Positions 9,334-36,791 of a DNA stretch of 64,000 bases are shown here, piece after piece (the stretch's first letter is position 1; each line of letters opens with the position of its first letter). The notes under the pieces were generated by a model. The model saw only the letters and a list, made by a program, of their open reading frames with translations, did not search any database and was not told the DNA's origin. The DNA comes from a bacterium (GTDB lineage: Bacteria > UBA8248 > JACPRG01 > G963555815): positions 64,001 to 128,000 of the forward strand of contig CAUVWX020000002.1 of assembly GCA_963555815.3 (NCBI GenBank), read 5' to 3'. The position numbers were made by a program, and so were the translations under genes.

Positions 9334-9367
9334 AGCGTCGGGTCTTTCCCTGACATGGGTTGAAAAA

Positions 9368-10144
9368 ATGCCGTCGAGAGGAAGTGTAGGGATCCTCTGC
9401 GCGTTGAGACCTGAGATCTCGGGTCTTCTTCGAACGGCCCAGACCGAGAACCTGAGGCGAGGAGCCCTTTGGAGGGGAGACCTGGAGGGGGTACCCCTTT
9501 TTTTTTGTCGGGGCGGGGTGGGGCTCAAGCGGGCCGCGGCAGGGGCACGGACTCTCATTGAGGAAGCGGCCCGAACAGGGGGTGGTGACCCCGGGTTGTC
9601 GACTCTCCTTTGTGTTGGGGCGGCTGGCGGGCTGGACCCTCGTCTGCGGCCGGGGGACATCGTGGTGGCCAAGGAGGTCTTAGGACCAAAAGAGGATCGC
9701 CCTTTGGGAGCCCCTCCCTTTTTAGTTCGCCTCGCCCAAGAAGCCGCCCGGGCGAATGGCCTCTCCCTGCGTGAGGGGAGGCTCTTGAGCGTGCCTCAGC
9801 CCCTTGTTGGCCCGAAGGAGAAAGCCCGGTCTTTCTCGGCGTATCGGGCCCTTGCCGTGGATATGGAAAGCCTGGGGGCGGCAAGGGTCGCCCGGGAGAT
9901 CGGGGTGCCTTTTCTTGCCCTTCGGGTCATCGCTGACGACGCCAGGATGACTCTGCCGATGCCGTCAGGTCTTTCGCCCCACCGCCTTGTGATAGAAGGT
10001 GCTCGTTTCGTCGCCAAGGTTCCCCGGTTTCGCCGAGCCCTCCTGAATCTCAATCGTTTCCTCGCGGCGTTCATCGTCCAGTTAGGTCTCTCCCCTGAAT
10101 GGGTTCGTAGACCCGATGAGGAGGTTCCCTCGGTCCAGCCATGA
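9368..10144 (+). CDS. Nucleoside phosphorylase superfamily protein (HpnG-like)
   Basis: GAAGGLDP, AVDMES and LRVIAD motifs; directly downstream of shc. Confidence 0.8.
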   Translation: MPSRGSVGILCALRPEISGLLRTAQTENLRRGALWRGDLEGVPLFFCRGGVGLKRAAAGARTLIEEAARTGGGDPGLSTLLCVGAAGGLDPRLRPGDIVVAKEVLGPKEDRPLGAPPFLVRLAQEAARANGLSLREGRLLSVPQPLVGPKEKARSFSAYRALAVDMESLGAARVAREIGVPFLALRVIADDARMTLPMPSGLSPHRLVIEGARFVAKVPRFRRALLNLNRFLAAFIVQLGLSPEWVRRPDEEVPSVQP

Positions 10145-12372: not shown

Positions 12373-12588
12373 TTCCCCCCTTCGTCTCTCTGCATCACGT
12401 CGAAGTCGGACGGGAAGTGCCGTAGGGATGAAGAGAAAAAGGCTTCTTGCACCTTTCCCTGGGGAAGGCCTATAGTGAATTGTTTTTTTGCTCAGGTTTG
12501 GAGGCGGAGGTGACCTGGGATTGGTTTGCCCGTCAGTTTGCGGGAGTTTTTTTTGACTCGAAATGCTGAGGGGGAGCTGAGGGATTAG

Positions 12589-13824
12589 ATGAAACGGATC
12601 AGCGGATGGATCGAGGGTTTTTTCGTCTCGGTCTTGATCCTCCTTCTTTGGGTTTCGCCGGGACTCTCACAGCTGCCTTTGCCTGACACCTCTCTTGGCC
12701 CTCGGACCCGGCCCCTTTTTCTGCCCCTTCCGGCCTTCGGGAGTTCCCCCAGTAAGGGGAACGACTTTGGCATCCTGCCGGTGTGGCTTTTCTTTGATTC
12801 TGAGGGGAAGATCAACAATATCTTGGCCCCTTCGGCCATCTTCAACGACGAGACGGGCCTGAAGGGGGCCTTCCGCTGGATTGGCTTTCTCCCTGACTCT
12901 GCCAAGTTCCGCCTCATCGCCGTTCGCTCCACCAACGTGGACGAGGACTACGTAGCGGAGCTGGAGGCCCCTCGCCTCTTTGGGGAACGCTTCGCCTTCT
13001 TTGGCGAGTTACGCTACTTTCGGGACCCCACCTTCCAATTCTTCGGCCTTGGCCCCGAGACCAGGGAGACGGACGAGACGGGTTTTACCCAGCGGGAGCT
13101 GCGCGCGAGCCTCAGCTTCGGGGTGAATTTCCTCTCCGCCTTCAGGATCACCTATGACGAACGGACTCGTTTCGTGACCATTAAGGGTGGAGGCCGGACC
13201 ACGGAGGCCTTCATAGCGGAGAGCTTTCCTGGGACCCCGGGTGTGGGGGAAGACATCCTCACCTCGACCCGAGGGTTCACCCTGAGCTTTGACACCCGAG
13301 ACTTCATCGACCTTCCGACCCGGGGCTTTTTCGGAAAGGCCGCCATTGAGGTTTCTTCAGAGGCCTGGGGGAGTGAAGAGTCGTATACACGTTTTACCCT
13401 GGAGGGCCGTGCCTTTGTCCCCTGGCCGGACGATCGATGGATCACCTCCCTTCGCCTTACCTCGAGCTTCGTGGACAACCAAAGTGCCCCTTTCTATGAG
13501 CAGAGCTCCTTGGGGGGAAAAGACTTTCGGGCTTTTCCAGACGATCGTTTCATCGATAAAGGAAGCATTCTCCTGAATCTAGAAGAGCGATATCGCCTCT
13601 TTCGCAAGTCGATCTTCCAGGTGGACACGGACATCGAGGTGGCCCCCTTCATCGAGCTGGGCCAGGTCTTTGAGGATTCCGACGAGATCGCCACCGAGCA
13701 TGTCCGGCTCGCCTTCGGGATCGGATTGCGGGCCGTCGTCCGCCCCAACGTGGTGGGAAAGGTGGATGTGGGGTACGGCGAGGAGGGGGCTCGTCTCTTC
13801 GTAGGTCTGGGCTATCCCTTCTAA
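12589..13824 (+). CDS. BamA/TamA (Omp85) family outer membrane barrel without POTRA domains
   Basis: Signal peptide, DTRD, LGG..FRAF...RF, amphipathic strands and terminal GLGYPF. Confidence 0.8.
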   Translation: MKRISGWIEGFFVSVLILLLWVSPGLSQLPLPDTSLGPRTRPLFLPLPAFGSSPSKGNDFGILPVWLFFDSEGKINNILAPSAIFNDETGLKGAFRWIGFLPDSAKFRLIAVRSTNVDEDYVAELEAPRLFGERFAFFGELRYFRDPTFQFFGLGPETRETDETGFTQRELRASLSFGVNFLSAFRITYDERTRFVTIKGGGRTTEAFIAESFPGTPGVGEDILTSTRGFTLSFDTRDFIDLPTRGFFGKAAIEVSSEAWGSEESYTRFTLEGRAFVPWPDDRWITSLRLTSSFVDNQSAPFYEQSSLGGKDFRAFPDDRFIDKGSILLNLEERYRLFRKSIFQVDTDIEVAPFIELGQVFEDSDEIATEHVRLAFGIGLRAVVRPNVVGKVDVGYGEEGARLFVGLGYPF

Positions 13825-13948
13825 TTAAAACCCCCATCTCCACGGATTCCAATCCTGTAGAGGCTCTTCTGCCCTTCGGTTGATGTAGGGTGTATATTTC
13901 TCTGCACGGGGTATTTTTTTGCCGAGCGGATGTCCGAGGGAAGGGCCG

Positions 13949-14932
13949 ATGGTTGACTTTGGTCCCGTCTTAGACCGGTTCGCCAGTGCACGGGTCATGG
14001 TGGTCGGGGACCTGATGGCGGACAAATATGTCTGGGCCGACGGCCAAGGGTCCATACGGGGCGCGACGGAGGTCTTGAAGGTAAAGCGGGAGAATTACGC
14101 CCTGGGTGGGGCGGCCAACGTCGCCAACAACCTTCGAGCCATGGGGTCTGAGGTCTTCCTTTGCGGTATTGTTGGTTACGACGACGCCGCCCACTGGTTT
14201 CGCAGGGGCTGCCACGAGGCAGGGATTGATACCAGCGGCATCTTCCCCGTTAACGATCGGCCAACGACCCTGAAGATCCGGATCATGACGGGGGACCGAC
14301 CTGCTCCCCTCTTTCGCGTCGATTATGAGCGGGCCGACGCGGCTGACGCCTCGGAGCAGGCCTCGATGCTAACCTACGTGGAGCACTATCTGCCCATGGT
14401 GGACGCCCTCATCCTGTCCGACTATGACAGGGGAATCTTCGCCTCGGCGGACTTTACCCTTGGCCTAATGGAGCGAGCCTCCCATCACCAGAAGATTACC
14501 GTCATCGAGCCGAAAGGTCCGCGGCTCGACTTCTGCAAGGGGGCTCATCTGGTCATCCTGGGCGACATCGAGGCTGAGGATTTTTGCCTGCGCGCCTTTC
14601 AACCGGCCCCCGCGAACTGGGAGGCCCTTGGCGGCCGCTTGAGAGAAACCCTGGGCTGTGAGGCCTTGGCGGTCCTTCGCTCGGAGGAGGAACTTTGGTA
14701 CCACTACCGGGAAGGGGAAACGGGTCGCCATGTCGTCGAGACTGTCGATCGCCGGATGGTGCGGGACGCAACGGGCGTGAAGGATACCATCACGAGCGCC
14801 CTCGCTTTGAGCCTCATCGCTGGGGTCGATCCTCCAGCGGCGGCCCGCCTCGCCCTGAAGGTGGCAGAGAAAGTAGTCAGCAGGATCGGAACCGCCACCG
14901 TTTCTCTGGCGGAACTCAGGCGGACGCTCTGA
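13949..14932 (+). CDS. PfkB-family kinase, HldE/RfaE domain I-like (divergent)
   Basis: VVGDLM, GGAANVANNL, RPTTLKIR and LSDYDRG motifs; DATGVKDT replaces DVTGAGDT. Confidence 0.82.
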   Translation: MVDFGPVLDRFASARVMVVGDLMADKYVWADGQGSIRGATEVLKVKRENYALGGAANVANNLRAMGSEVFLCGIVGYDDAAHWFRRGCHEAGIDTSGIFPVNDRPTTLKIRIMTGDRPAPLFRVDYERADAADASEQASMLTYVEHYLPMVDALILSDYDRGIFASADFTLGLMERASHHQKITVIEPKGPRLDFCKGAHLVILGDIEAEDFCLRAFQPAPANWEALGGRLRETLGCEALAVLRSEEELWYHYREGETGRHVVETVDRRMVRDATGVKDTITSALALSLIAGVDPPAAARLALKVAEKVVSRIGTATVSLAELRRTL

Positions 14933-15030
14933 GCGGCGGAACTTCCCCGATGAACCCTCTGACGTGAAGGCGATCCCCGGGATGGGAGCCCTTCCTTTAT
15001 GCGATCTTCCTTTGGGGTGCCCGACTGCCT

Positions 15031-15930
15031 ATGAAACCCAGTGAAGAGACCCTGAGATCTCTGGAAGCCCATGCCGTTGAGATGGCCCGGGGGGCAGGAG
15101 ATCTCTTGGCCGCCCGTTTCGGCAAAGACCTCAAGGTGGAATTCAAGGACCGAAAGAAAAAGAGGGACCCCTTAACAGACGCTGATCAGGAGAGTCAGGC
15201 CTATCTTCGGAGGGCCATTGAGAAGAATTTTTCTGGACATGGGATTTTGGGCGAGGAGGCCCTTGAGGTTCAGGGAAAAGACGGTGAGTTCCTTTGGGTA
15301 GTGGACCCTTTAGACGGGACGACCAACTTTCTTCGAAGGCTTCCGATCTACGGGGTCTCGGTGGGCGTCCTTCACGCGGGCCAGCCCGTTGTGGCCGCCA
15401 TCTCCCTTCCCGGCCAAGGGGGCCGACCGACCGAGGTCTTTCACGCCCGGGCGGCTGGGGGGGCCTTTTTAGACGGCCGCCCCATCCATGTGAATGAGAT
15501 CAAGCGACCGGCCCCTACGCAGCTCGTCTGTCTTCCAGGCCGCTACGGCTCCATGTTCCGATTTGTCGGAGACCTTAGGAGGCATCCGGGCGAGGTCCGA
15601 GGGACAGGCAGCATCGCCTTTGAACTCGTACACGCGGCCCTGGGGACCTTCCAGTACGCCCTCTTTGTTAGTCCCAAGATATGGGATGTGGCGGCAGGTG
15701 TCCTTCTGGTCAAGGAGGCGGGCGGAGAGGCCCTCATGCGTCGCAAGGCGGGAACAGCCTGGCGTCCTCTTGAGCGCTTCGGGCCAGATGATCCCACAGC
15801 CCCCCGGACTCTAGATGGGCTGCGTAACTGGCGAGCCTCCTTGATCGTGGGAAACCGGGACGTGGTGCGTTTCGTCACGGCCCATATCCGTCGTCCCTTT
15901 CGCTTGAGAATCCCCCGCTCCCGTCGATAG
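15031..15930 (+). CDS. Inositol monophosphatase family protein
   Basis: LGEE, WVVDPLDGTTNF and WDVAAG motifs. Confidence 0.92.
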   Translation: MKPSEETLRSLEAHAVEMARGAGDLLAARFGKDLKVEFKDRKKKRDPLTDADQESQAYLRRAIEKNFSGHGILGEEALEVQGKDGEFLWVVDPLDGTTNFLRRLPIYGVSVGVLHAGQPVVAAISLPGQGGRPTEVFHARAAGGAFLDGRPIHVNEIKRPAPTQLVCLPGRYGSMFRFVGDLRRHPGEVRGTGSIAFELVHAALGTFQYALFVSPKIWDVAAGVLLVKEAGGEALMRRKAGTAWRPLERFGPDDPTAPRTLDGLRNWRASLIVGNRDVVRFVTAHIRRPFRLRIPRSRR

Positions 15931-15985
15931 TCAACGTCAAACCCGCTCTCTTCTGCTGCACAACCCGGCGAGGGCCTCCAGAGGC

Positions 15986-16752
15986 TCAGTAGAGGGGCCA
16001 AGGGGTGGCGTGGTGTGTCGGGGGAAGGGGATAGAGGGGAGAGGCCAAGAGGCGGTCCAGTCGCTCCCCGAGGGCATTCACCTCGCTTCCTTCAAGAAGG
16101 GCCAAAAGGGCCCGGCGAAGGTTGCTCTCCTCGTCCAGTCGTCTTCGGAAGACCTTTAAGTCGGAAAGAAGACCTCCCGGTATGGGCTGGCCTCGGAAGT
16201 CCCAGAGGATGGTCCTGAGCTTTGGTTCAGTGTGGAAGGTGAGGCCATGGTCAATGGCCCACACCCGCGCGTCCTGTGCCCGAAAACAGTGGCCCGCCTT
16301 TCTGTCCGCATTATTGACAAGGACATCGAAGAGGGCGATCTGGCGCAGGGCCTCACCGTGCTCGCGCTGAAGAGCGGCGTAGTCGCACTCGGAATCTGGT
16401 GCGATGTAGAGCTGGAGTGAGCCCACACCGTGGGGGCCCGGGCGGATCACGGTCGGCGGAACCAGGTGCCAGCCCAGGGTCTCGCTGACGAGGAAGGCGG
16501 CGAGCTCCCGCTTGTAGAGGGTTCCTGCCGGAAAATCCCAAAGGGTATCTCCCCCTCTTCTGGCTTGTAGATGGCGAGAAGAGACAGACCGTCCCCCGCT
16601 ATCAAAGAGACGGCGAAGGTGTAATTGGACGCCCAGGGGACGAGCTGGAGGTCGCCCATCTGACCTTCCTGGAGGAGGTCTAGGGCCTCAGTGAGCGAGC
16701 AGGTCAGGCTGCTATCGGCAGAGTGCTCCTTTTTCTTTCGTGGCTGTTTCAA
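15986..16752 (-). pseudogene. SCO1664-family (PI3/PI4-kinase-like) protein, one frameshift near 16543
   Basis: SNYTF..YKPEEGEIP in one frame continues as LWDFPAGTLYKRELAA..VPPTVIR..NNADRKAGH..IDHG in another; a single missing base restores the gene. Confidence 0.85.
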
Positions 16753-17576: not shown

Positions 17577-19350
17577 ATAGGCCAGCCCTGCGACATCCTG
17601 GGCCTCGTCTGTTATGGACAGCATGACGCCGCTGCGGTCCTGGTGCGCGACGGCCGAATCCTCGCAGCAGCGGAAGAGGAGCGATTCACCCGCAAGAAAC
17701 TGGATAACTCATTCCCAGAAGAGGCAATCGCCTTTTGCCTGGAGAAAGGTGAGATCGACGTTCAGGATTTAACGGCCGTCGCCCTTGGCTGGGACCCTCG
17801 AGCCCACCGTCTGAACAAGACCCTTTATCTCCTGCGAAACCTCCCCCTCTCTATTTTCCTCGTGGCCCGGTCAGGGAGGCGCCAGTGGCGGATCTTTCGG
17901 ATGGCCTCCCACTTTGTGGAGCAGACCCGATATCGGGGTCCCATCCACCCGATCCGTCACCACCTGACGCATGCGGCCAGCGCCTTCTCCCCCTCCCCCT
18001 TCGAGGAGGCCGCCATCCTCACGGTGGACGGGGTGGGCGAGTGGGAGACCCTTTGGATGGGGTCGGGCCGCGGCCTTTCTATCAAAGAGACCACCTCCGT
18101 GGGATGGCCCCATACCCTCGGGGGGCTCTACGCGGCCGTGACCCAGCATCTGGGGTTTGAGATGTTCGCAGACGAGTACAAGGTGATGGGACTTGCCGCC
18201 TACGGCCGGCCAGTATATCTCGGCCGCTTCCGAGAGATGATCGTCCTCACCGAGGGTGGCTTCCGAATCGATCCAAGCTACTTCGCCTACTTTGTGGGGT
18301 GGAGAATACGGGCCATGGGGCTCATGATCTGTTCCAGAAAGTTCGACAGGGAACTCGGGCCGCCGCGCGCTGCTGGGGACCCCGTTGAAGAGCGCCACGC
18401 TGACCTCGCTGCTTCTCTCCAGGCCAGGACCGAGGAGGTCCTGATTCATTTCGCCCGGGAGGCCGTCAGGCGGTCCGGGCTCCTGAATCTGTGCCTGGCA
18501 GGGGGGGTGATGCTGAACTCGGTGGTGGTGGGGAAGATCATGGAGTCGGGGATAGCCGACTCCATATTCGTGCCCCCCTGCGCCGGGGACGCTGGGGCCT
18601 CCCTCGGGGCTGCCCTCTATGTCTCCCACGTGATGCTGGGCCTCAAGCGTGCGGAGGCGTTTCAGGACGCACGCCTCGGACCGGAGTGGGGGAGAGGAGG
18701 ATATACGGAGGGCCGTCGAGAGGGCTTCCCTTCGATGGACGCAGGCAGATGATCCTGTCGCCTTGACGGTGGAGGCCCTGGAGGCGGGCCAGATCGTGGG
18801 CTGGTTTCAGGGAAGGATGGAGTTCGGACCGAGGGCCCTTGGGGCCAGAAGTATCCTGGCCGATCCCCGAAGGGACAACATGAAGGACCTCGTCAACGTC
18901 AAGGTGAAATTTCGAGAACCCTTTCGGCCCTTTGCCCCCGCAATTCCGGAAGAGCGGTTTTCAGATTTCTTCTTGGGGGCGCCACCCTCCCCGTTCATGA
19001 CGCAGGTGTATCAGGTGAGGGAGGACAAGCGGCATCTGATACCGGCCGTGACCCACATCGACGGGACCGCCCGGGTCCAGACCGTCCGGCGGGACGTGGA
19101 CCCTCTCTTCTGGAGGCTGCTTGAGGCCTTCGGGGATCGAACGGGAGTTCCTGTTCTTTTGAATACCTCCTTTAACGTGAAGGGCGAGCCCATCGTCAAC
19201 AGCCCGACGGACGCCGTCCACTGCTTCCTCAAGGCGGGCCTCGACCTTCTCGTCATGGGCCGCTTTTTGGCTAGAAAGAGGTTGGCCGAGGGCGCCCCCG
19301 AAGAGGAGACTGCTCCCTTAGCCTTCTTTCCCCGGGGTGGGGCGGACTGA
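17577..19350 (+). pseudogene. NodU/CmcH-family carbamoyltransferase, frameshift at G5 18688-18692, no canonical start
   Basis: ILGL..HDAAA..EEERF, HHLTHAASAF, DGVGE, EYKVMGLAAYG, then EFGPRALGARSIL and NTSFN in a shifted frame. The conserved N-terminus extends upstream of 17643 to an ATA at 17577. Confidence 0.88.
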
Positions 19351-19514
19351 GCCTGAAATGAGTTGATCTAGGAAACTGGATGACCCGAGGTCTTCTGCAC
19401 GAGGAGATCCGGGGTATTCAGTTCGTCCTAAGAAGGTTGGCACTTACCGCGACTCCTCTCTAAAACATAAAGCGGCCCTGAAACCGAAGGAGAGAAGGGT
19501 TTACCCTGTGTGGA

Positions 19515-20198
19515 CTATCCCTGGCCCCTCGACATCTCCCGAAAGAGGTACCGGAGGAATCGGAGTCCCGTGGTGAGGGAATGGGCCTTGCTTTCGCCCC
19601 CGATGCGGTGTCCCTCGATGGTGGGGATCTCGCCCACCTTGAGGCCCAGTTTGAGGGCGCGAATGGACATCTGAAACTCGATAGCGAACCCCTCTGCGTC
19701 GGGGTTCATTCGCTGGAACGCCTCCCGAGTGACCCCCCGAAAGCCGTTGATGGAGTCTGAGAGCCGCCCCCCCCAGATGAGGTTTGCCCACCAGGTAAAG
19801 GCACGGTTTGCCCAGGCCCGCCAGGGCAAGCGAAGTTCATCCTCCTCATTCTTCGATCCCGGGAGGAATCTCGAAGCGACGGCCATGTCGTGGCCCAGGC
19901 GGAGGAGATCCAGGAGCTTTGGGATGTCGCTTGGGTCTTCGTTCCCATCAGGGCTGAAGAAAATGAGCCAATCTCCCCGAGCCTCCTGGACGGCCAGACG
20001 AAAGGCCTCTCCCCGGCCGGGTCTTGGCTGAAGGAGGATCCGGCCTCCCCGCTCCCGCCATAGCTCGATGGTCCCGTCCGTTGATCCCCCATCGACGACA
20101 AACCACTCATCCACCGCGTGAAAGGGAACACGGTCTACGAGGGCTCGCGAGCCTTCAATCTCGTTGAAGGTGAGGATGACGAGGGTGGACTGGGTCAC
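19515..20198 (-). CDS. GT2 glycosyltransferase, polyprenol-phosphate sugar synthase-like
   Basis: TFNE, VDGGSTDGT, GRGEA, PDG, ASRF and DSINGFR motifs; GTGA overlap with the upstream epimerase. Confidence 0.9.
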   Translation of the reverse strand: MTQSTLVILTFNEIEGSRALVDRVPFHAVDEWFVVDGGSTDGTIELWRERGGRILLQPRPGRGEAFRLAVQEARGDWLIFFSPDGNEDPSDIPKLLDLLRLGHDMAVASRFLPGSKNEEDELRLPWRAWANRAFTWWANLIWGGRLSDSINGFRGVTREAFQRMNPDAEGFAIEFQMSIRALKLGLKVGEIPTIEGHRIGGESKAHSLTTGLRFLRYLFREMSRGQG

Positions 20199-21175
20199 CG
20201 TTTGAGGGCGGTCTGGGTGAGGTACCACTCAACTGTCCTTTGAAGCCCCTCCGCTAGCGGGGTTCGGGCGTGAAATCCGCACCTCTCCCGCGCCTTGGTG
20301 GTGTCGCAATTTCGGCGTGGCTGGCCTGCCGGTTTAGAGGGATCAAAGCGGATCTCCAACTCGCGCCCTGAGATCTGGATGAGCCTCTCGACCAGTTCGC
20401 GGATGGTGACCTCCTCCTCAGTGCCGAGATTGACCGGGTCCGGTTCAGAACAATGTTCCGCCAGGCGAAGGAGGCCCTCCGCCAAGTCCTCCACATAGAG
20501 GAAGGACCGCGTCTGATCTCCATCTCCCCACACGACGACAGGATTCTCCCCCCCGAAGACCCGCCTGATGAGAGCTGGGATGACGTGGGCTTTTTCCTCA
20601 TCAAAATGGTCTCGGGGGCCGTAGGCGTTATAAGGCCTGGCGATGGCGATGGACATCCCGAACTCCTCGTGGTACATCCGGGCCGCCACCTCGGCGAACC
20701 GTTTCGCCCAGCCATATCCGAGATTGGTGGGTTCTGGCTCCCTGACAAATCCTTCGCTTTCAGGTGTGGGGATGAGGCAGTCGCGGGGGTAGACACAGGC
20801 GCTGCTGACCACCAGGTAGCGCTGCACGCCTTCCTTGCGGGCGGCTTCCAGAAGCTGGATCCCGAGGAGGGCGTTATCACGGAACATGATTCCCTGGTGG
20901 GATAGATTGTAAGCGATCCCTCCCACCCGGGCCCCGAGATTGAGCACCACCTCTGTCCCGCTGACCGTTCGCTGGCAGCACTCTGGCTCTCGGAGATCGT
21001 CCTGAATCCACTCAATATCGTCGAAGACGCCCTCCAGGTTGGCCAGGTCCCCGTTCTCCAGATTGTCGGCGACTCGGATTTGTGCCCCTAAGCTCAGCAG
21101 GCGCTCAACGACGTGGGAGCCGATGAAGCCCGCCCCACCTGCCACGAGAACCCTCTTGTCCTTCCAGAACCCCAT
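20195..21175 (-). CDS. NAD(P)-dependent GDP-sugar epimerase/reductase (Fcl/GME/ColC-like)
   Basis: GGAGFIG, ARVGGI, SSACVYP, YGWAK and HVIPALI motifs. Confidence 0.88.
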   Translation of the reverse strand: MGFWKDKRVLVAGGAGFIGSHVVERLLSLGAQIRVADNLENGDLANLEGVFDDIEWIQDDLREPECCQRTVSGTEVVLNLGARVGGIAYNLSHQGIMFRDNALLGIQLLEAARKEGVQRYLVVSSACVYPRDCLIPTPESEGFVREPEPTNLGYGWAKRFAEVAARMYHEEFGMSIAIARPYNAYGPRDHFDEEKAHVIPALIRRVFGGENPVVVWGDGDQTRSFLYVEDLAEGLLRLAEHCSEPDPVNLGTEEEVTIRELVERLIQISGRELEIRFDPSKPAGQPRRNCDTTKARERCGFHARTPLAEGLQRTVEWYLTQTALKR

Positions 21176-21387
21176 CCAATCCCATCCTGCAAAAAGTTTC
21201 GAAAGCCAAGCGAAGTATATTATACTTTTCAGCCGGAGGAGATCCAGATCCTTCTCAAGGAGGGGGTGAGGTCGCCTTTTTCGAGTACGATATACAGGGA
21301 CAAAGACAGGTATCCCCGGGTAAAAAAGGGGGATTCATCCTCTAAGAGGGCCCCAATAAGGCCCTTTTTCCATGGCGGAATGGTTTC

Positions 21388-22415
21388 TTGAAGCAGCGCG
21401 TCCTCGTCACCGGTATTAGTGGCTTCGCCGGAGGTCATCTGGCTGAGTATGCGGCTGGGCTCCCGGATGTGGAGCTCTACGGGATGGTGCGCTGGCGAAG
21501 CCAAACGAGGCACCTACGTCATCTCGACAAGCGGTTGACGCTCATCGAGGGGGATGTGAGGGACCAGTCCTCGGTCCTGCGTGTGATGCAGTCCGTGAAG
21601 CCTCACCGCATCTTTCATCTGGCGGCCCAAAGCTATGTCCCGACCTCCTGGAACGCCCCCGAGGAATCCTTGACGACGAACGTCCTGGGGACCCTTCACC
21701 TCCTTGAAGCGGCCCGGCAGGTGGGGGGCGACCCCCTGATCCACATCGCCTGCTCTAGTGAGGAGTACGGCCTTGTCTATCCTGAGGAACTTCCTATTCG
21801 GGAGGGCCAACCCTTTCGTCCTCAGAGCCCCTACGCCGTGAGCAAGGTGACGCAAGACCTCTTGGGCTATCAATATTTCTGGAGCTATGGACTGCGGATC
21901 ATCCGGACCCGCGCCTTTAACCACACCGGCCCAAGACAGCGTGAGGTCTTCGCCGTATCTAACTTTGCCAGGCAAATCGTGGAGCGGGAGCAGGGGCTGC
22001 AAGGGGAGCACTCCGGGTGGGAGACCTCCAGGCAGTCCGTGACTTCATGGATGTGGGCGATGCAGTGCGGGGCTACTGGCTCGCCCTGGAAAGGGGTGAG
22101 CCAGGGGAAGTCTACAATATTGCTTCAGGAAAGGGGTATCCGATGGAAGACATCCTGGCTCAGCTCATGGCGACGGGAAAAGTCCAGCTGGACCTGGAGG
22201 TGGATACCTCGCGGCTTCGCCCATCGGACGTGCCGAGGCTGGTCGGAGACGCGTCGAAGTTCAAGGCCCGGACAGGATGGGCGCCCGAAATTCCCTTCGA
22301 GAATACCTTGGCGAACCTCTTGGAATACTGGCGAGGTCAGCTCGCGGTCACGGGCAAGGGACATGAGACCACGAAGCGGGCCGTCGCCAACCCTCCGATC
22401 TCCAAGAGTATCTGA
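21388..22415 (+). pseudogene. GDP-mannose 4,6-dehydratase / Rmd-type SDR, frameshift at G4 22003-22006
   Basis: GISGFAG, HLAAQSYV, SSEEYG, SPYAVSK and FNHTGP; continues as ALRVGDLQAVRDF..YNIASG..LRPSD in another frame. Confidence 0.88.
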
Positions 22416-22479
22416 CGTCTTCCCGCCTGGGGAGAGGAGAGATGCGCCCAGGCCGGCACCGATCGCCAAAAGCTTTCCG

Positions 22480-23706
22480 TTACCCAGAAGCCTGCGATCC
22501 CCTCTCGAAAAATGTCGTGAATGCCTCAATCACGTAGTCGAGGTCTTCTTGGGTGAGGCCTTGATGACACCCGACATAAAAGCCTCGTTGCTCTATGGAC
22601 TGGGCCACCGGATATTGAGCCCCCAGGTTTCCAAAGAGCTTTTGATAAACGGGTTGGCTCAGGAGGGGAAAGAACGGGCGGGTCTCGATCCCCCGGGCCT
22701 CAAGATGCATCAGAAGGGGGGTCCTCACCCCATCCCCCGTTGCCATGAGGGGAAACATCATGAAGGCGTGGCCCCGGTCATCAGGCAGATAGGGCAGTTG
22801 GAGGTGATCCTCAAAACCTTTCAGGTGGCGCAAGAGGTATTCGGCGTTCTGGCGGCGTCGCTGCATCATGGCCTCTCTCTCTTCCAGCTGGGCCAGGGCG
22901 ATGGCCGCTTCGATCTCTGTGGCGCGGTAGCTGTAACCCAATCGGACGAATGAGAAGCGCCGCTCGATCATGGCGGCCATCCGGTCGTCCTCGTCCAGAT
23001 TGTCGTCATCGTCGATGCTGAGATAAATGGAGTCCCGCCCGTGGGCGATGAGGCTCCGGCATATCTCGGCGGACTTTGGGTCGTTCGTCGTAATCAGCCC
23101 CCCCACCCCTGACACCAAGAGATGGGCAGCATAGGTCGAGAAACAGGCGAGATCCCCCATTGATCCGGCGGGACGACCCTTGTAGGCGACGAACATCGTT
23201 TGGGCCGAATCTTCCAGCACATGCAGCTTCTTTTTTTTGGCAATGTCCAAGATGGGATCCATGTCGCAGATGAGACCACAGAGGTGGACTGGGATGATGG
23301 CCCTCGTGCGATGCGTCATCCGCCTTTCGATCTGAGCCGGGTCGAGGTTGTAAGTCCGCGGATCCACATCCACGAAAACAGGGGTCAGCTGATTCTGGAG
23401 CACGATATTCGATGTGGCCACGAAGGTGATGGCGGGTACCAGAATCTCATCTCCATCAGAAAAATCGTATTGCTCCTTTAGACAGGCCAGGGCGACTTGG
23501 AGGGCACTGGTCCCGCTGTTGCAGAAGATGGCGTGGCGACAACCGTGCTCGCGAGCGAAGGCCTCTTCCAGCCGGCGGGTGTATGTCCCATACGTGAGGC
23601 GGTTTGAGTCCAAGACGGCATGGGTATACCTGCGCGCGCGCTCGCTTATCTCGAGATGGCCCAGTCCGATCCGTCGCACCGCGCCCCCATCATCCACCTT
23701 GTTCAA
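22480..23706 (-). CDS. DegT/DnrJ/EryC1/StrS-fold PLP enzyme with His in place of the catalytic Lys (ColD/E1-like 3-dehydratase)
   Basis: NSGTSAL, TFVAT, EDSAQ and FSTYAAHLLVSGVGG motifs. Confidence 0.88.
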   Translation of the reverse strand: MNKVDDGGAVRRIGLGHLEISERARRYTHAVLDSNRLTYGTYTRRLEEAFAREHGCRHAIFCNSGTSALQVALACLKEQYDFSDGDEILVPAITFVATSNIVLQNQLTPVFVDVDPRTYNLDPAQIERRMTHRTRAIIPVHLCGLICDMDPILDIAKKKKLHVLEDSAQTMFVAYKGRPAGSMGDLACFSTYAAHLLVSGVGGLITTNDPKSAEICRSLIAHGRDSIYLSIDDDDNLDEDDRMAAMIERRFSFVRLGYSYRATEIEAAIALAQLEEREAMMQRRRQNAEYLLRHLKGFEDHLQLPYLPDDRGHAFMMFPLMATGDGVRTPLLMHLEARGIETRPFFPLLSQPVYQKLFGNLGAQYPVAQSIEQRGFYVGCHQGLTQEDLDYVIEAFTTFFERGSQASG

Positions 23707-25355
23707 TCTTTTCTTTGAAACACAGCGATCTTCTCGGGCAATGGCCTGCGGATGAGCCCGAGGAGCCGGACGTCCTTTTCAAACCGCTTTATCAGGACGA
23801 AGTCTTCTCTCTCCATGAGCTTCTCCAGGAGATCCCGCTCCTGGGGATTGGAGTCAGAGGTGAAGGAGATGAAATATTGGAATCGGCCCAAGGGGGCAGA
23901 AAGCTCTGGAGTTATTGAGAACTGGAGGGCCGGAAACAGTGAGGGATCATTGAAAGGATATTCACTCCGGTTGATCCCCACGTGGGTCTCCGCCGGGATA
24001 TTCTTCAGAACCCAGCGGAAGGCCTCGGGCCTCACATACGTGTCCTGGATCCGAAGGGACAGGGGATTTAGCGCGCCGCGTCCCAGAAGGAGGAGAGGAA
24101 TGAGGACAAGGACGCCTCCCAGGGCGTAACGATATCCGCTCCTTCCCATCCGATCACTCCATCGCCTCCAAACGACCCATAGAAAATAGGAGGCGAGAAC
24201 CAGAAAGAGGGGAATGACCGGCATGAAATAGCGGCCAAGGACAAATTGGGGTGGGCTGAGGAGAAATTTCCCCAGGAAGAGGACAAGCACCAGGGCGCAG
24301 AACCTCTCCGGCAGGCTTCCCCGGAGGCCGACCAGGATGGCCCCACCCAGGGCGCTCAACGCCAAAAGCCAAGCGCCGTTCATGGAAAGCTGCCTTCCAA
24401 TGGCCACGAAACTCTTCAGAAAGGGAAGATAAAGGCCAGTAGAGGTGGAAGGGACGTGCTGGTTGCCGATCCATGCCAGGTCCGAGATAAATCCCCTGTA
24501 GTCCAAGAAGGAATAGGGGTTCCCGAACGCGAAGCCGAGAAGCAGGAACCCCAGGCCCAGGTAGAGGCGCCAGTCACGAAGTTTTTCCAGAAAGGGAAAG
24601 GAGTGTCCCTTGCCGCGGTGAGGTCTCATCCAGTGAGCCAGAAGGATGGCCGGCATGAGGACGAGGGAATTGTACTTGGTCGCCACGGTCAGACCCCCTA
24701 CGAATCCCGTGAGGGCGTAGAGCCCTCACCCCCGGTTTTCTCCCGAGAGCAGGCGGAGGCAGAGGAGCAGGAAGACTAAGGAGAAAAAGGTCACGGGAAG
24801 GTCGGCTGTCATGGAGGGGTAAAACTCCAAGAAGCTTGGGTATAAAGAGAGAAAAGTCGCGGCGAGAAGTCCAACCCCCGGGCCGTAAAGCTTGAATCCC
24901 AACAGGTAAACTCCGACGATGATGCCAAGGGCTGAAAGGATGGAAACCCATCTCCCGGCAATGTAGACCCTTCGAAGTTCTTCGGGACGTTCAACGAAAT
25001 ACCCCTGCCCTGGAACGGCGGGGAGCTCTATCAGCCTCGTTAGGCTGGCCAGGCCCACAGACGCCCCTACGAGATAGGTGTTCAACGGGCCGACGAAAAA
25101 CGTTTCCAGGCCGAAATAAAGTTTTGACGGCCTCCAACCCTGTATGTTTGCTATGGTCCTGTCCTCGTTCGGAGAGAGGGAGAAGGAATTTGGGACGTTG
25201 GTCAAACTGTGGTCCAATTGAACGACTGCCGACACGAGTGTCCCGATGAGCAGGAGCGGGAGGATGAATCTGGCAAGGGCGTGGGGATGGCGAAAGAAGC
25301 CTTGCTGTTTGTGACGGTCGTCGGATTTTCCGCTCTTGTCCCCTTTGGGAAACAA
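23703..25355 (-). pseudogene. ArnT/PMT-like GT-C glycosyltransferase interrupted by an in-frame TGA at 24726-24728
   Basis: The two ORFs share one frame: ...ENRG*GLYALTGFVGGLTVATKYN...; GRWVS, multi-TM and RYFMP motifs. Confidence 0.8.
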
Positions 25356-25750
25356 ACTATCTAACCTCTCTCAGAGATGACTGGTGATTCATCAAGCCCT
25401 ACAGAGCGCTGGCTTCAATCTTCCTAAGCCGTCCATTCGGGATTGTGCGGGCATCGAAGGTGGCCACATTCTCGGGTTTTCAGTGACCGATGTTGAATAC
25501 GCTGGATGCGTTTTTGTCTGCGCACCGCCTTTTCCACGACGCCTTGGTGCTGTCGCCAGACGAATCCTTGTATATTCTTCTTTTCTCAGCCGGAAAGCTA
25601 TGCTGAGATAGATATCGGGGCCGGTTTATCCTCAATTTGGGGACATCTCAAGTCTGGCTCGAAGCGGAAATGGGAGGGGCCGCTTCAGGGTGTCCTAAGG
25701 ACCCAAACAAGTTTTGTTTGTCCTCGACCAGAGGCGAAAAGTCGAAGCTC

Positions 25751-27409
25751 ATGCAAAGCAGACGCGGCTTCCTCATCCTGGCAGTCTTTTTGGCGGTGGG
25801 CCTGTGGTGGGTCTTTCCCTCTTCCCACCCCTTTCTCGTTGTCTTTCTCCTATCGACTTTTGTCGTGGTCCTCCTTCGAAGGTTTGCCCCTTCTTCCGAC
25901 TTCCCCTTCCTCCTGAAAATTTTCGTTGCCTCTCTTATCCTCCGTGTTGCCTTGGCTGTCGCCACTCATCATGGACTTGGGGGAAGCCTCAGCCTTCCGG
26001 CCCTGGCCCCGGACGCCGAGCGCTACTCTGCCTGGGGGTGGTACATCTCCATGCTTCTACAGGGCCATCAGCTTCAGCTCATGTCCCCAGAGGCCTTCTG
26101 GAGCACCTTCCAGGACACCATCCCCTACGTCCTCCATCAGGACTTTGTGGAGATCGCCGGAGGCGATCGATTTCCCCCCTACTCGGCCTATGCGGTGGGC
26201 TGGTATCCCTATTCCCTGGGGGGACTCTATTACTTGACCGGTTACTTTCCCATCCTCCCGCGCCTCCTGAATACGCTGGTGGGAAGCCTTCTGGTCCTGG
26301 CTGCTTACGCTCTCGGCCGTGAGATTTTTAGTCCGAAGGTGGGCCGTCTCGCGGGCATTCTTTGTGCCTTCTTTCCCTCTCTCATTCTGTGGTCCACCAC
26401 GGGGCTGAAGGACCCTTATCTTGTGCTGCTGATGGTCCTGGCCTGGTTGGGCCTCGTCAAATGGATTCGGATCTGGAAGGTTCGCTGGATAGCGATTTTT
26501 GCCGTTGGGATTTTTGGAATGTGGATGGTGAAACCTGTCTTTGGGGCCATGGGCCTTCTGGCGGCGGGGGGATGGGGGGTGGCTCACTTCGTCCACTTGG
26601 CTGGCAAGAAGACGCGTGTTGCCCTTCTCGTTCTTCTCATCCTCGTCGCCGGCGCCTCCGCATGGCAGTCCTCCATCCCAAGGGACCTCTATGGGAGGGT
26701 CGCCCTCAGCGCGGCCAGGATCCAATTCAAAAATTACTGGAGCGGGGGCCAGGTTTACGCCACCCTTCCCATTTCCACTTTCTCCCAAGCGGACTATCCG
26801 TCGCAACCCCACCCCCCCGGGACCTTTTTCGTCTCACTCCTTCGCGGCTACACCTATTTCTTCTTCGCCCCCTTTCCGGGCCAGGGACATTCGCTGAAAG
26901 ATCTCGCTCTTTCCCTCCACATGGTCCTCGGATATCTCTTTCTTCTGCCGGGGGTGTTGGGGTATTTTCGCGCCTTTCGGTCAGACTGGCGGGCGAATTT
27001 CCCCATCGGCCTCTACCTTCTTCTGGCGGCCACCTTGATGGCTGCCATTGAGGCGAACTTCGGCACCCTCATCCGGCATAGGGATTTTTTGATGCCGCTT
27101 TTGTTGATCTATGCCGCTGGAGGGCTGGCGTTCCTCACCCCTTTGGGGTCTCGGCTCTGGGGGCGAAAGGGCGCCGTTGCCAGAGGACCTGAAGCCCCAG
27201 GGCGGCAAAAAAAGGATGGGGGGGCTCATGGCTTGCACTCTCACCCTCAGGAGGGCGTAGAAGACAAGGGGGACGAGAAACCAGAAGCCGAGGAAGATAA
27301 AGAGGAGGATCGATCCCTCCCAATTTTGGCGCGCCCGAGGGAGACCCAGGAAGGCCAGGAGCATCAGGAGAATGTAGGGGACCCCCAAGACGATCCAGTT
27401 CCTGAGTGA
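25751..27409 (+). CDS. Multi-pass membrane GT-C/ArnT-like (or Wzy-like) protein
   Basis: PDAERY, FPSLILWS..LKD and NFGTLIRHR motifs. The hydrophilic tail after ~27150 overlaps the convergent gene and is probably an artefact of local indels. Confidence 0.75.
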   Translation: MQSRRGFLILAVFLAVGLWWVFPSSHPFLVVFLLSTFVVVLLRRFAPSSDFPFLLKIFVASLILRVALAVATHHGLGGSLSLPALAPDAERYSAWGWYISMLLQGHQLQLMSPEAFWSTFQDTIPYVLHQDFVEIAGGDRFPPYSAYAVGWYPYSLGGLYYLTGYFPILPRLLNTLVGSLLVLAAYALGREIFSPKVGRLAGILCAFFPSLILWSTTGLKDPYLVLLMVLAWLGLVKWIRIWKVRWIAIFAVGIFGMWMVKPVFGAMGLLAAGGWGVAHFVHLAGKKTRVALLVLLILVAGASAWQSSIPRDLYGRVALSAARIQFKNYWSGGQVYATLPISTFSQADYPSQPHPPGTFFVSLLRGYTYFFFAPFPGQGHSLKDLALSLHMVLGYLFLLPGVLGYFRAFRSDWRANFPIGLYLLLAATLMAAIEANFGTLIRHRDFLMPLLLIYAAGGLAFLTPLGSRLWGRKGAVARGPEAPGRQKKDGGAHGLHSHPQEGVEDKGDEKPEAEEDKEEDRSLPILARPRETQEGQEHQENVGDPQDDPVPE

Positions 27410-28369
27410 GGACCCGCCCCAGGTGGGCCTCCAAAAGTTGACGAGCTTTCCTGGCAGGACGGCGAAGAATCGCCCCGGGTGCTCTCTGACGTACTCGAAG
27501 AAGGCCTTGGAGTGGAGGGCGTCTTTTTTTGTCTCTGAGATACCCGAAGGGACGAGATAGGGAAGTGGGCAATCTGCCAGGAGTCGTGGTATCCGTCGTT
27601 TCCCCCCTCGGAGAGGGGATTCGTCCCGGCCCAGAGGGCCTCTCCCGTCCGGGGGACGCCCACAAGGAAATTTCCTTGAAGCTTCAGGTTGTGAAGGGCC
27701 CAAGGAAGGAGCATCAGGACCACCACCCCGGTGGCGAGGGAAACCCCTATCGTCGTCCGGCGGAGCTTTCGTCTTCCCCTCCAGAAGAGATAGGGGATCA
27801 TCAGGAGGACAAGTGTGAGGTAGCCCGGACGGATCAGGGCCGTCGTCCCGGAGAAGAGACCCGCCCAGAAAAAATCTCCCGGTCTTCCCTCTTCTCCCGC
27901 ACGATAGATGAAGAGGAGGGTAAGGCTCGCCAAAAGGATCGTGATCGTCTCTGTCAGAAGGATCGGCACATAGAAGAGATAGAAGGGATACAGGGCGGCC
28001 ATGAAGCCGGCGGTGACCCCCACCCCGCTTCCGAAGAGGCGGCGGCCAAGGAAAAAGAGGACGAGGGCGTTAGCCGCGTGGAGCAGGGACTGGACGAGTC
28101 CGATCCAAAGGGCGGATTCCCCAAAGAGCCAAAAGAGCCCCGCGAGGAAAAGGGGATAGCCTGGCAGCCAACGGGAGGTGGGCACCCCGTCGATGAGATA
28201 GCCCTCCCCCCCCAGAATGGAGCGGGCGAGGGCGGCGTATTGTGTCGAGTCTGGCGTGGTGAGGGCCACCCCCCTCCCCGAAGCTGGAGAAGTTAGCGAG
28301 CGCGGTCCATAAGACCGCCGCCCCAAGGGCTACTCCGAAGATGGCCCACTTCCAGTTAGCCGAGCTCAT
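27135..28369 (-). pseudogene. ArnT-like GT-C glycosyltransferase with three frameshifts
   Basis: Joined segments MSSANWKW..SSFGE / VALTTPDSTQY..PGYPLFL..LTET..RP..PW..HN..AHF / PYLVPSG..KLVNFWR..RVR / FAALGLQVLW..PKG*; breaks at C6 28269-28274, G3 27560-27562 and A7/G7 27207-27224. Confidence 0.78.
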
Positions 28370-28529: not shown

Positions 28530-30275
28530 GTGAAAGGATCTAGGCAGAATTTCCAAAAAGAGTTTCTTATCTTGATCGCCATCCTGGTCGGGGCGGGACT
28601 TCTTCGTTTCTACTCTCTTGGACACCCCTTTTATCATACCGATGAGGCCGCTCAGCTTCTCTCCTCTCTCCGGCTGTATCAGACAACTCCATTTCAGTTC
28701 TCGCCTCTCGCGTCCAATTTCTTTGCCCAGATTTTTTCCTATCAGTATGGTTTTGCCTCGGTAACCCTCCCATTTTTCTTCTACTGGATTCTCTCAACCC
28801 TGGGCATCCCCCTTCGGGAGTGGGTCCTCATCTTGCCGAGCACGCTCGCGGGGATGGCCGCTATTGTGATGGTCTACGTTCTGGGACGCCGGCTCTTTTC
28901 ACCAGGGGCGGGCCTTTTGGCGGCGGCCCTCTTGGCCGTCCTCCCCGAGGCGGTGGCCCACTCGCGAACCGTGCGCTGGATGAGCTACACAACCGTCGTC
29001 CAGGGCCTCACCGTCCTTGCCTTTGTCCGCTACTTTGAAAGGCCCACCCGAGGGAGGGCGTATCTGGCCTCGGCCGCCATCGCCCTTGAGATGGGAACCA
29101 ATAACACCTTTCCTTTCACCCTTCTGGCCGTCGGAGTCCTTGGACTCATCACCCTCGGGCCACAAGGGGGATCGACTTTCTGGGCGCGGCTCCGCGAGCT
29201 GCTGAGGAGCCTGCTTCGGCCGGCGGTATGGATCTTTCCGGTGGTCGTCCTCGGCATCTACTCCCTCCAATACACCTTGTCTTATCGCACAGGATTTCCC
29301 GTGGGCTTTCTGCAGCGGATCCTGGAGAAGCCCGATGGAATCGGTTCCTATGGCGAGATCTTTTGGCCGGCAGCGTTTTTGGCCTTCACGCCCCTCGTCT
29401 GTCTTGCCCTGGGGGGTGCCCTCCTCTTTGTCCTCTTTCGGTTTCGGGCCCGCCCTCACCTTCTATTCCCCGCGGTGTGGTTAACGACGATGGCCGGGGC
29501 AAGCCTGCTCTTCGTCCCCTTAGGCCGGTTCAAAATGTTGCTGATGATGGTTCCGGCGGTCCTCCTTCTGGGGGCGGTCTTTTCTGATGTGGCCTCTCTG
29601 AGCGGGCGGGTCTTCTCTTCAGCCCGGACCGCTGGTCGGTTGGCCGTGGGGGGCCTGGTGGGTCTTCTTGTCCTCTCTCCCCTGAGCTATACCCTGGCGG
29701 AGAACTTCCGATTGGACCCCCTGAGGCTTGGACTTCGTCCTGGCGTCGGTGCGGTGGGGGTGGGGGACCGGAACCGGGCCATGAAGACGGTAGGCTACTA
29801 CCTTCGGAAGCTCACCCCCCCGGAGAGCACCGTCTTTACGCCCGGTAAGGTATATGAGCGGACCATGCCCTCGGAACTCTACTTTGGCAAGCGAGTGCTC
29901 AAGGGAAGCGAGGGGGAACCGACCCTCTTCCTCACTATCCCCGAGGCCCGTGGGCAGCGCGTAGACTATGTCGTCATTTTCGAGGACGGGCCCTTTCTCT
30001 CAGAAAACGATCGGGGCTTAAACGAGGGGGCGAGGCGCCAGGCCCGAGAGTGGGGGATGAGGCTGGTGGCCAGGGTGCGGGACGGTGAAGACGTCCTGGC
30101 CGTCATCTACGGAAAGGAAGGAGAGGTCCAAGACCTCGACGTGAAGATCTATGATCCCCTGTTTGACCGGGAGTTCACCAATATCCGCCGGTGGGCTCCT
30201 GACTTCTACCTGGGCGGTTTCAAGATGGCGCGCTCCCCGCTCTTGGGGTTTTCGGAAGAGAGGGGGGAGGTTTAA
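28530..30275 (+). CDS. ArnT/PMT-like GT-C glycosyltransferase
   Basis: LRFYSLG....TDE after TM1, HSR..R.Y-like loop, many TM helices and a soluble C-terminal domain. Confidence 0.8.
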   Translation: MKGSRQNFQKEFLILIAILVGAGLLRFYSLGHPFYHTDEAAQLLSSLRLYQTTPFQFSPLASNFFAQIFSYQYGFASVTLPFFFYWILSTLGIPLREWVLILPSTLAGMAAIVMVYVLGRRLFSPGAGLLAAALLAVLPEAVAHSRTVRWMSYTTVVQGLTVLAFVRYFERPTRGRAYLASAAIALEMGTNNTFPFTLLAVGVLGLITLGPQGGSTFWARLRELLRSLLRPAVWIFPVVVLGIYSLQYTLSYRTGFPVGFLQRILEKPDGIGSYGEIFWPAAFLAFTPLVCLALGGALLFVLFRFRARPHLLFPAVWLTTMAGASLLFVPLGRFKMLLMMVPAVLLLGAVFSDVASLSGRVFSSARTAGRLAVGGLVGLLVLSPLSYTLAENFRLDPLRLGLRPGVGAVGVGDRNRAMKTVGYYLRKLTPPESTVFTPGKVYERTMPSELYFGKRVLKGSEGEPTLFLTIPEARGQRVDYVVIFEDGPFLSENDRGLNEGARRQAREWGMRLVARVRDGEDVLAVIYGKEGEVQDLDVKIYDPLFDREFTNIRRWAPDFYLGGFKMARSPLLGFSEERGEV

Positions 30276-36262: not shown

Positions 36263-36791
36263 AGTGCTTTTACCTCGCCCTGCTTGAACGAGAGGTTGCA
36301 AGGCTTCTGCCGGCCTCCTCTGTCGGTGTCAAAGCCGAAAAAACCCTGGTGAGCGGGCTGCTTACGAAACCGCTCCATGTTTGGCCGGGGAAGAAAGAAG
36401 GTTTTTCAGGCAGACCATTTCCCTTGAGGAAACGGGGCGGGGAATCATCTTGTCTGAAAAGTAGGAATCTAGAAGAAGATAAGGAGGGATGAACAGGTCT
36501 ATCTGGGGGGAGGGGACACTCCTGCTGCCCCGCTATTCGATAGTTGCTTTTTGCCAGGCGGACCCGGTTTAAGAAATGCCGCTGCCAGACCCACGGGGAT
36601 CGGCGGACTCGGGGGTTGTCCCGGGCAGGGGCGGAGGGTGAACCGTCAGAGCGAAATTTTTCTCTCGTCAAACCTTCGGACCTCACCGTCCACCTCAACA
36701 GGGAACTCTCAGAGGGATTCCCCTTCACGGAAACGCCTATTCAAGCCGAATCTCCCGGTCTCTGTCAAGCCGGAATTCTCCCCATTTCCCC

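Follow-up and report, generated by a model that had tools for sequence, protein, structure and literature searches.

A GT2 glycosyltransferase beside a His-for-Lys DegT-fold enzyme: a candidate lipid-linked route for a colitose-type 3,6-dideoxysugar

The stretch of DNA analysed here (the window; 64,000 bp, positions 64001-128000 of contig CAUVWX020000002.1, hereafter C2) belongs to bacterial assembly GCA_963555815.3, a genome of 2.08 Mb in 2 contigs. It contains a cluster of genes for a GT2 family glycosyltransferase, a reductase resembling GDP-L-fucose synthase (Fcl), a short-chain dehydrogenase/reductase (SDR), a DegT-fold enzyme dependent on pyridoxal 5'-phosphate (PLP) with His in place of the catalytic Lys, and a GT-C membrane glycosyltransferase. 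Together these may load a sugar of the GDP-L-colitose type onto polyprenyl phosphate for transfer by a GT-C enzyme, a reading that we regard as evenly poised. Its general form is more tentative and falls somewhat short of even weight: a widespread GT2 subfamily would produce polyprenyl-phosphate-colitose for beta-L attachment by GT-C enzymes on the outer side of the membrane, fed by a second, independently Fe-S-free lineage of PLP 3-dehydratases that is sometimes tethered to the GT2 by a fused degenerate copy. The genes, motifs, co-occurrence, fusions and joint loss described below are observed, and every activity is inferred from them.

The His-for-Lys enzyme and its homologues

The DegT-fold gene (22480..23706, minus strand; PF01041, E 6.5e-98) encodes a predicted 3-dehydratase with His at the position of the Schiff-base Lys, as the original prediction had stated. 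The codon at 23122..23124 (minus strand) is indeed CAT, and the encoded His195, within FSTYAAH, aligns with the Lys of PerA, the His of E1 and H188 of Escherichia coli O55 ColD. The sequence HGRDSIY stands where E1 has its GRDCxC loop, so that the predicted substitution of the E1 Cys motif by GRDSIY is borne out by alignment. A protein search returned 3993 matches at E 1e-40; among the best 120 of these, query included, the His was present in 120/120, CxC or CxxC followed HGR in 0/120, and the Glu of EGG was replaced by Val, Ile or Ala in 120/120. A genome scan recovered 62 loci, comprising 46 of the window His clade, 15 more distant ones and one fragment. The His was kept in all 46 loci of the clade; most of the distant loci have it too, but with a Cys-rich loop, as does the D. 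magneticus plasmid enzyme. The PLP- and substrate-site positions G56, D159, S183, H188, H215, R219, R250, E329 and R331 of ColD are kept in the window enzyme. The Glu of an ETR motif, which we take to bind guanine, is common to the GDP-sugar enzymes ColD and PerA and absent from E1 and ArnB.

Replacement of Lys by His marks 3-dehydratases, and ColD operates without an Fe-S cluster, according to the available text of a review that also describes the ColD mechanism (PMC8987622). The alignment of the His and the absence of the Cys cluster support the earlier reading of a His-type, Fe-S-free PLP 3-dehydratase, and the enzyme very probably follows the ColD mechanism with neither Fe-S cluster nor reductase. 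Automated labels point elsewhere, as had been anticipated: the homologues among the matches listed are named aminotransferase or perosamine synthetase by their sources (one is a CDP-3-dehydrase), and the RefSeq name of E. coli O55 ColD is likewise aminotransferase/perosamine synthetase. The best NCBIfam match is RfbH, at 225 bits against a cut-off of 423.

A DegT tree was constructed from 32 rows hand-picked from 64, ColD and E1 among them. All His enzymes formed one clade (100/98*) apart from the Lys aminotransferases. Within it, ColD joined E1 (100/96*), and the window clade was separate (100/98*), joining the Cys-rich His rows (92/91 and 93/86, unstarred). Membership of the His clade was thus recovered and membership of the ColD group was not, although forcing the window clade together with ColD, at a cost of 25.7 log units, was not rejected by the approximately unbiased (AU) test (p=0.085). 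The window enzyme is distinct from ColD, with which it shares 28% identity (RfbH 28%, PerA 32%); the clades are separate, and S187, H189, E194 and N248 of ColD are changed. We infer that it works like ColD, yet it is not established as a ColD orthologue.

No close homologue of the His enzyme was found in the 40 relatives searched (best E 3e-47), and vertical inheritance was rejected. Members of the His clade were absent among the listed matches from the plasmid and phage collections (best 36%). A further clade of His-type DegT enzymes (loci L057-L070 and L078:7989-9194) carries a Cys-rich loop (CxCxxC...C) and adjoins Gmd and Fcl genes; it is possibly an Fe-S dependent, GDP-sugar counterpart of E1. 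A Synechococcus phage (L082:2029-5942) encodes two nucleotide-sugar epimerases, a His gene of the ColD clade and a glycosyltransferase.

The GT2 subfamily, its partner genes and a natural deletion

The GT2 gene (19515..20198, minus strand; PF00535) encodes a predicted polyprenyl-phosphate glycosyltransferase of 227 amino acids in a subfamily resembling dolichol-phosphate-mannose synthase (DPMS). Its motifs are S-P-D-G-N-E-D in place of DxD, NEED, NGFR and RxGGES; the S-P-D aligns with D-A-D of DPMS, and absence of the canonical DxD is subfamily-wide, partly by construction of the search. DPMS 5MLZ is the best PDB match by sequence (E 7e-12) and the top Foldseek hit of the predicted model (TMq 0.81; mean predicted local distance difference test score, pLDDT, 93), and profile ranking places DPMS first (E 2.7e-22), followed by ArnC and GtrB. 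Hydropathy revealed no transmembrane segment; two Trp/Phe/Arg-rich helices (residues 126-142 and 207-224) are of the membrane-interface type. It has a GT-A fold and an RxxGxSK loop, both features of polyprenyl-phosphate GT2s of the DPMS/ArnC/GtrB type. From these sequence and fold comparisons, it is probably a polyprenyl-phosphate glycosyltransferase. In the plasmid and phage collections, only distant GT2s (34%) were among the matches listed.

Genomic neighbourhoods were collected around the best 80 of 533 metagenome matches to the GT2, with flanks of 7 kb. Fcl-like genes occurred in 49 of these loci, His-type genes in 34, Lys-type genes in 5 and Gmd genes in 5; counts of GT-C genes by BLAST (4/80) were too insensitive and were left unused. 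The 34 His-type partners comprise 22 of the window clade, 7 Cys-rich His enzymes, 4 true ColD and 1 of the D. magneticus type, and this pairing with four His lineages suggests that the GT2 follows the product. After clustering, a His partner was present in 17/30 clusters at 90% identity and in 9/19 at 75%.

The 46 loci anchored on the His clade contain canonical Gmd in 16, non-canonical Gmd in 2, Fcl-like genes in 18, any polyprenol-type GT2 in 27, this GT2 subfamily in 14 (13 of them with Fcl), a fusion in 6, and HddA and RmlA in none. A PMT-family protein was found in at least 17 of the 46 (68 picked proteins scanned), and one clade locus (L193) holds a WbgN-like GT11. In the six fusions, the His enzyme is joined to a copy of the GT2. 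The fused GT2 domains are degenerate, with SPDGNE, NEED, NGFR and RxxG lost in 7/7 examined, and an intact GT2 copy accompanies the fusion at five of the six loci; the sixth genome has one at another site. The degenerate domain may serve to tether the His enzyme to the intact GT2; complex prediction for the fused degenerate and intact GT2 of L021 gave a score of 0.01. The His-for-Lys enzyme, the Fcl-like reductase and this GT2 are found jointly in unrelated genomes. The DPMS-like fold and profile, the co-occurrence in loci and the fusions agree with the earlier view of a polyprenol-phosphate-synthase-type GT2 tied to this pathway.

A natural deletion adds to this association. Genome G001, of the same genus, is 90-93% identical, 95% complete and syntenic with the window, and lacks window positions ~19331-21143 and ~22440-25672, neither of which has a counterpart at another place in G001. 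Two deletions thus removed the GT2 with the Fcl-like gene and the His gene with the GT-C gene, and the SDR was kept. The initial codons of the Fcl-like reading frame survive in G001, which marks these as deletions there rather than a gain here. The joint loss of His enzyme, GT-C, reductase and GT2 fits a single function.

Several counts weigh against a dedicated link between the two enzymes. His genes are missing from 13/35 of the GT2 loci of at least 8 kb, which indicates a tighter tie to Fcl, and 32/46 His loci are without this GT2 subfamily. A background sample of 300 genomes from the phylum of L012 contained the His clades in 7 (6 inspected, all with His) and the GT2 in 1; none of the 7 His-scoring genomes has this GT2, and the single GT2 genome has neither partner within 16 kb. 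This sample was drawn without matching to the metagenome contigs, and ColD and E1 would escape detection in it. It is conceivable, at a low probability, that the GT2 subfamily, as the partner of Fcl, makes polyprenyl-phosphate L-fucose and that the His enzyme is optional or serves another glycan. The long GT2 loci speak for it, having Fcl-like genes in 30/35 and His-type genes in 22/35 (8 have Fcl yet no His gene), as does the presence of Fcl in 13/14 His loci with this GT2. The His-GT2 fusions in 6/46 loci, the joint loss in G001 and the pairing of the GT2 with four His lineages argue the other way, and with flanks of 7 kb unseen His genes may sit further off.

Related arrangements were noted among the collected loci. 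In L012:10120-12627, L033:11049-13250 and L039:14095-16326 a GT2 is fused to a multi-transmembrane GT-C-like domain, and the fused GT2 of L012 belongs to the window's subfamily and closes a gmd-His-Fcl operon. A Haladaptatus plasmid (L081:168-5125) carries GtrA, GT2, gmd, SDR and ColD-clade genes together, by its gene content a putative archaeal version of the lipid-carrier system with a true ColD relative.

The proposed route and the identity of the sugar

In the proposed route, ManB and ManC homologues, which are encoded elsewhere in the genome, would supply GDP-mannose, and either the window SDR or a solitary paralogue at C2:623.5 kb would convert it to GDP-4-keto-6-deoxymannose. The His enzyme would then remove the 3-OH: PLP and glutamate would give pyridoxamine 5'-phosphate, which would form a Schiff base with the sugar, with His195 as acid/base and release of ammonia. 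The Fcl-like enzyme would epimerise C5 and reduce C4, and the GT2 would transfer the sugar with inversion onto undecaprenyl phosphate. The product of a GtrA-family gene, located on contig C1 and unlinked to the cluster, may flip the lipid-linked sugar, and the coupled GT-C or a neighbouring one would transfer it to a surface acceptor. If GDP-beta-L-colitose underwent two inversions, as the DPMS and Arn systems suggest by analogy, the sugar would end up as a beta-L glycoside.

The SDR (21388..22415, plus strand) has the Rmd/DmhA fold of GDP-sugar enzymes, its frame being split in the assembly into two PF16363 halves. No canonical Gmd (TIGR01472) over the cut-off was found in the genome, and the SDR is without the GQDG and NHESPRR motifs; it and the C2:623.5 kb paralogue, which is atypical too (NVTGPRH), are the sole 4,6-dehydratase candidates. 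The SDR family occurs in 18/51 genomes of the phylum, and at 14/16 class-level loci it opens a tandem pair whose second gene is an Rmd-looking paralogue; once it precedes an Fcl-like gene. In the tree, the window SDR falls among the first-of-pair genes (95*), keeping their RWRS loop and S-S-E. In L013 and L018, both from genomes without Gmd over the cut-off, a member of this family lies beside the His gene. Judged by these features, we lean slightly towards a non-canonical GDP-mannose 4,6-dehydratase.

The SDR is improbable as an Rmd-type C4 reductase, whose product would be GDP-D-rhamnose or, should it act downstream of the His enzyme, GDP-tyvelose (D-arabino); the paralogue would then be the dehydratase, and this branch would run either in parallel with the L-sugar route or separately from it. 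The best solved match of its N-terminal half is the Rmd 2PK3 (147 bits, compared with 134 for the heptose dehydratase 7US5 and ~102 for Gmd). At the position of a Gmd Arg it has an Rmd-like Gln (GPRQ), resembling the second-of-pair genes and departing from the GPRR of its relatives; the reductases 2PK3 and 6X3B have GPGQ, the dehydratases 7US5 and 7KF3 have Arg, and King et al. 2009 reportedly found that an Arg at this position matters for dehydratases. The SDR also lies on the opposite strand and is retained alone in G001, and its ratios of replacement to silent polymorphism (pN/pS) of 0.24 and 0.53, by simple counting, compare with 0.19-0.34 in neighbours; the GPRQ, the solitary retention and these ratios all tell against a dehydratase bound to the pathway. 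Conversely, the reductase assignment has to contend with the first-of-pair branching and its retained motifs, with the fact that this family stands in for Gmd next to the His gene at L013 and L018, with the atypical paralogue, and with the one-base insertion, hence frameshift, and the D56G change in the G001 copy, in which simple counting found no clear replacement excess. The SDR that was earlier placed beside the His gene as Gmd/Rmd-type is thus only tentatively assigned a role in, and a link to, the pathway; the opposite possibility, a pure Rmd with no link to these genes, has the GPRQ and the retention in G001 for it and the branching against it.

Other unusual SDRs were encountered in the comparison. 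The tandem Rmd-fold pairs of 14/16 class-level loci (L083-L098), in genomes of which the one checked (G012) is without canonical Gmd, point to D-rhamnose synthesis by a non-canonical Gmd-Rmd pair. The non-canonical Gmd-type gene adjoining the His enzyme in the archaeal locus L018 (3156-5144) contains an intein with a LAGLIDADG domain. Second Gmd paralogues lie beside His enzymes at L036:2349-3371, L038:10132-11100 and L070:2348-3295; the two aligned (L036 and L070) are without RR motifs, and these paralogues are candidate reductases towards a D-series dideoxysugar such as tyvelose.

The Fcl/ColC-like epimerase-reductase of GDP-4-keto sugars (20195..21175, minus strand) has GDP-L-fucose synthase 8DU0 as its best PDB match (168 bits), followed by GDP-mannose 3,5-epimerase (GME, 159 bits). 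Its NCBIfam Fcl score of 189.6 bits is below the equivalog cut-off of 500, and identity is 25% to ColC of O55 and 30-31% to E. coli Fcl. Aligned to 8DU0, it keeps the Cys of SSACVYP, the His of AHVIPAL and the YxxxK of YGWAK, which we take to be catalytic. In Campylobacter jejuni, C4-reductases with 41-44% identity differ in yielding L-ribo or L-xylo products, according to the available text of PMC10440746; as such similar reductases diverge in product, colitose is likely here without its stereochemistry being fixed. The L-xylo product, colitose, is modestly favoured from sequence, with L-ribo as a possible alternative; of the colitose-like product claimed earlier, the pathway-type enzymes are present and the stereochemistry is a prediction.

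Slightly less probable than an SDR reductase is the proposal that the His enzyme transaminates, giving an amino sugar as in Arn, or that it needs an external reductant like E1 and SpnQ. The closest solved enzyme by sequence and fold is the aminotransferase PerA: the predicted model (pLDDT 94.6) matches PerA best (Z 52.2, root-mean-square deviation 1.4), then E1 (50.5) and ColD (47-48). SpnQ, itself a His enzyme, can transaminate when its reductase is missing, according to the review cited above (PMC8987622, available text). Four active-site positions of ColD (S187, H189, E194 and N248) are A, L, V and S in the window enzyme; the first three are kept in 0/27 clade rows and S replaces N248 in 26/27, and the window enzyme has Q169 where 26/27 rows have E. 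Both PerA as nearest relative and these substitutions detract from a ColD-like assignment, and the position of Cys-rich His enzymes as nearest tree rows also speaks for this alternative. Opposed to it are the nesting of the clade in the His enzymes (100/98*), the identity of the commonest neighbour, an Fcl-like C4 reductase needing a 4-keto substrate, and the absence of the Cys cluster for Fe-S.

Least probable is a 3,6-dideoxy-heptose, as in C. jejuni HS:5/HS:11, or a GT2 that glycosylates a soluble acceptor: the former has in its favour the second-best SDR match to a GDP-heptose 4,6-dehydratase and a related His enzyme with GT2 amid heptose genes in D. magneticus, and against it that HddA was not found in the genome at E 1e-10, nor in any of the 46 loci, and that the genome's two GHMP kinases are, from their motifs, presumably IspE and homoserine kinase, while the latter draws on GpgS, a soluble-acceptor glycosyltransferase that scores little below DPMS when folds are compared and so a further point against a lipid acceptor, though DPMS, ArnC and GtrB outrank it by profile.

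Locus context, known systems and significance

The Fcl-like and GT2 genes overlap by 4 bp (GTGA; likely GT2 start 20198), as do the GT-C and His genes, which are, judging from this overlap, translationally coupled. The GT-C (PMT_2) gene (23703..25355, minus strand; 550 codons; PF13231, 44 bits, spanning one TGA) was absent from the listing of the original prediction. The SDR is divergent from the Fcl-like and GT2 genes and convergent with the His gene, which implies three transcription units; the predicted overlap of Fcl-like gene and GT2 is thus real, and the four-gene neighbourhood is not one operon. Scanning for promoters and terminators gave counts at chance level; the single weak sigma-70-like site in the divergent intergenic region (21176..21387) is no more than chance would give. 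An invertible segment around the SDR was considered and rejected, the segment ends being without a long inverted repeat.

Beyond the GT-C gene, towards higher coordinates, the family scan revealed five PMT_2-like membrane proteins (25637-27409 plus, 27364-28326 minus, 28530-30275 plus, 31084-32949 plus and 32946-35027 plus), the first below the Pfam cut-off; PMT_2 matches number 16 genome-wide, of which 14 exceed the cut-off. Any of these five might use the lipid-linked sugar instead. On the other side lies a split carbamoyltransferase of the NodU/CmcH type (17643-19350, plus strand; ORF list and family scan). The flanks (7309-16752 and 35093-36301) contain squalene-hopene cyclase, phosphorylase, sulfatase and Omp85 genes together with a PfkB-family sugar kinase, inositol monophosphatase and inositol-1-phosphate synthase; the GT-C acceptor could be a hopanoid or an inositol lipid. 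Further away, at 49319-61580, is a block of vWA/BatA/DUF4159/DUF4175/TPR-peptidase genes with what we take to be a MoxR-like gene.

The SDR frameshift (~22000-22002) is an assembly error, given that one extra base is present in 7/8 runs (X1, X2, X4, X8, X12, X13 and X21; the listed contigs of the eighth, X14, do not span the site) and that G001 also carries the missing base. The in-frame TGA of the GT-C gene (24726-24728) is TGG (T24726C) in X1, X4 and X8, with X2 identical to the window, and represents a strain allele or an error common to a possible source run. Indels at 18688 (carbamoyltransferase) and at 27207 and 27559 (two membrane glycosyltransferase-like genes) vary between populations, so that the carbamoyltransferase (17643-19350) and the membrane genes (25637-28326) carry indels that other populations are without. 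These indels and the GT-C stop suggest switching or decay of surface glycosylation at strain level.

Compared with the GDP-L-colitose pathway Gmd-ColD-ColC of E. coli O55 (WbdK/WbdJ; PDB 2GMS), the window shares the His for Lys, the absent Fe-S motif, R219/R250/E329/R331 and an Fcl-like partner. It differs in the distant His enzyme with its S187A, H189L, E194V and N248S equivalents, in a reductase 25% identical to ColC, in the lack of a detected canonical Gmd, and in having a polyprenyl-phosphate GT2 and GT-C where O55 has a GT11 alpha-1,2-transferase and Wzx/Wzy. E1/RfbH and SpnQ likewise have His for Lys and a long insertion after GR, but the window enzyme is without their Cys cluster, RmlA is in 0/46 loci, and the window locus is without CDP/TDP pathway genes; from the aminotransferases PerA and ArnB it differs by His195 in place of the catalytic Lys. 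The Arn (ArnB/ArnC/ArnT), Gtr and dolichol-phosphate-mannose systems resemble it in their polyprenyl-phosphate type GT2, PMT_2 GT-C and GtrA-family gene; here, however, the predicted donor is a GDP-dideoxysugar, the GT2 is without a transmembrane anchor and has S-P-D for DxD, the DegT enzyme is without the Lys of Arn, the coupled GT-C carries a TGA, and GtrA is unlinked. The GDP-3,6-dideoxy-heptose pathway of C. jejuni HS:5/HS:11 (PMC10440746, available text) is alike in its succession of 4,6-dehydratase, PLP-dependent C3-dehydratase, C5 epimerisation and C4 reduction, and the window SDR resembles its heptose dehydratase. Unlike the window enzyme, however, its C3-dehydratases are 62-67% identical to ColD; HddA was not found in the window genome, and the same text makes no mention of a lipid-monophosphate carrier. 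A literature search that reached few subscription papers and no supplements found no paper on this His clade or on lipid-monophosphate colitose, and none of the papers found assays a member of the His clade or GT2 subfamily, which also counts against the pathway proposed here.

The folds are known and the chemistry has precedents, so that the system would be a new combination rather than a new kind of system. If the reading is correct, a large family whose members now pass for perosamine synthetases or aminotransferases would produce deoxy sugars, not amino sugars, and a 3,6-dideoxyhexose would join the known lipid-monophosphate sugar donors. A GT2 charging lipid with L-fucose-type sugars would be a tool for glycoengineering. 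As the nearest rows of the window clade are Cys-rich and ColD groups with E1, the clade allows a direct test of the number of times that C3 deoxygenation without Fe-S has originated.

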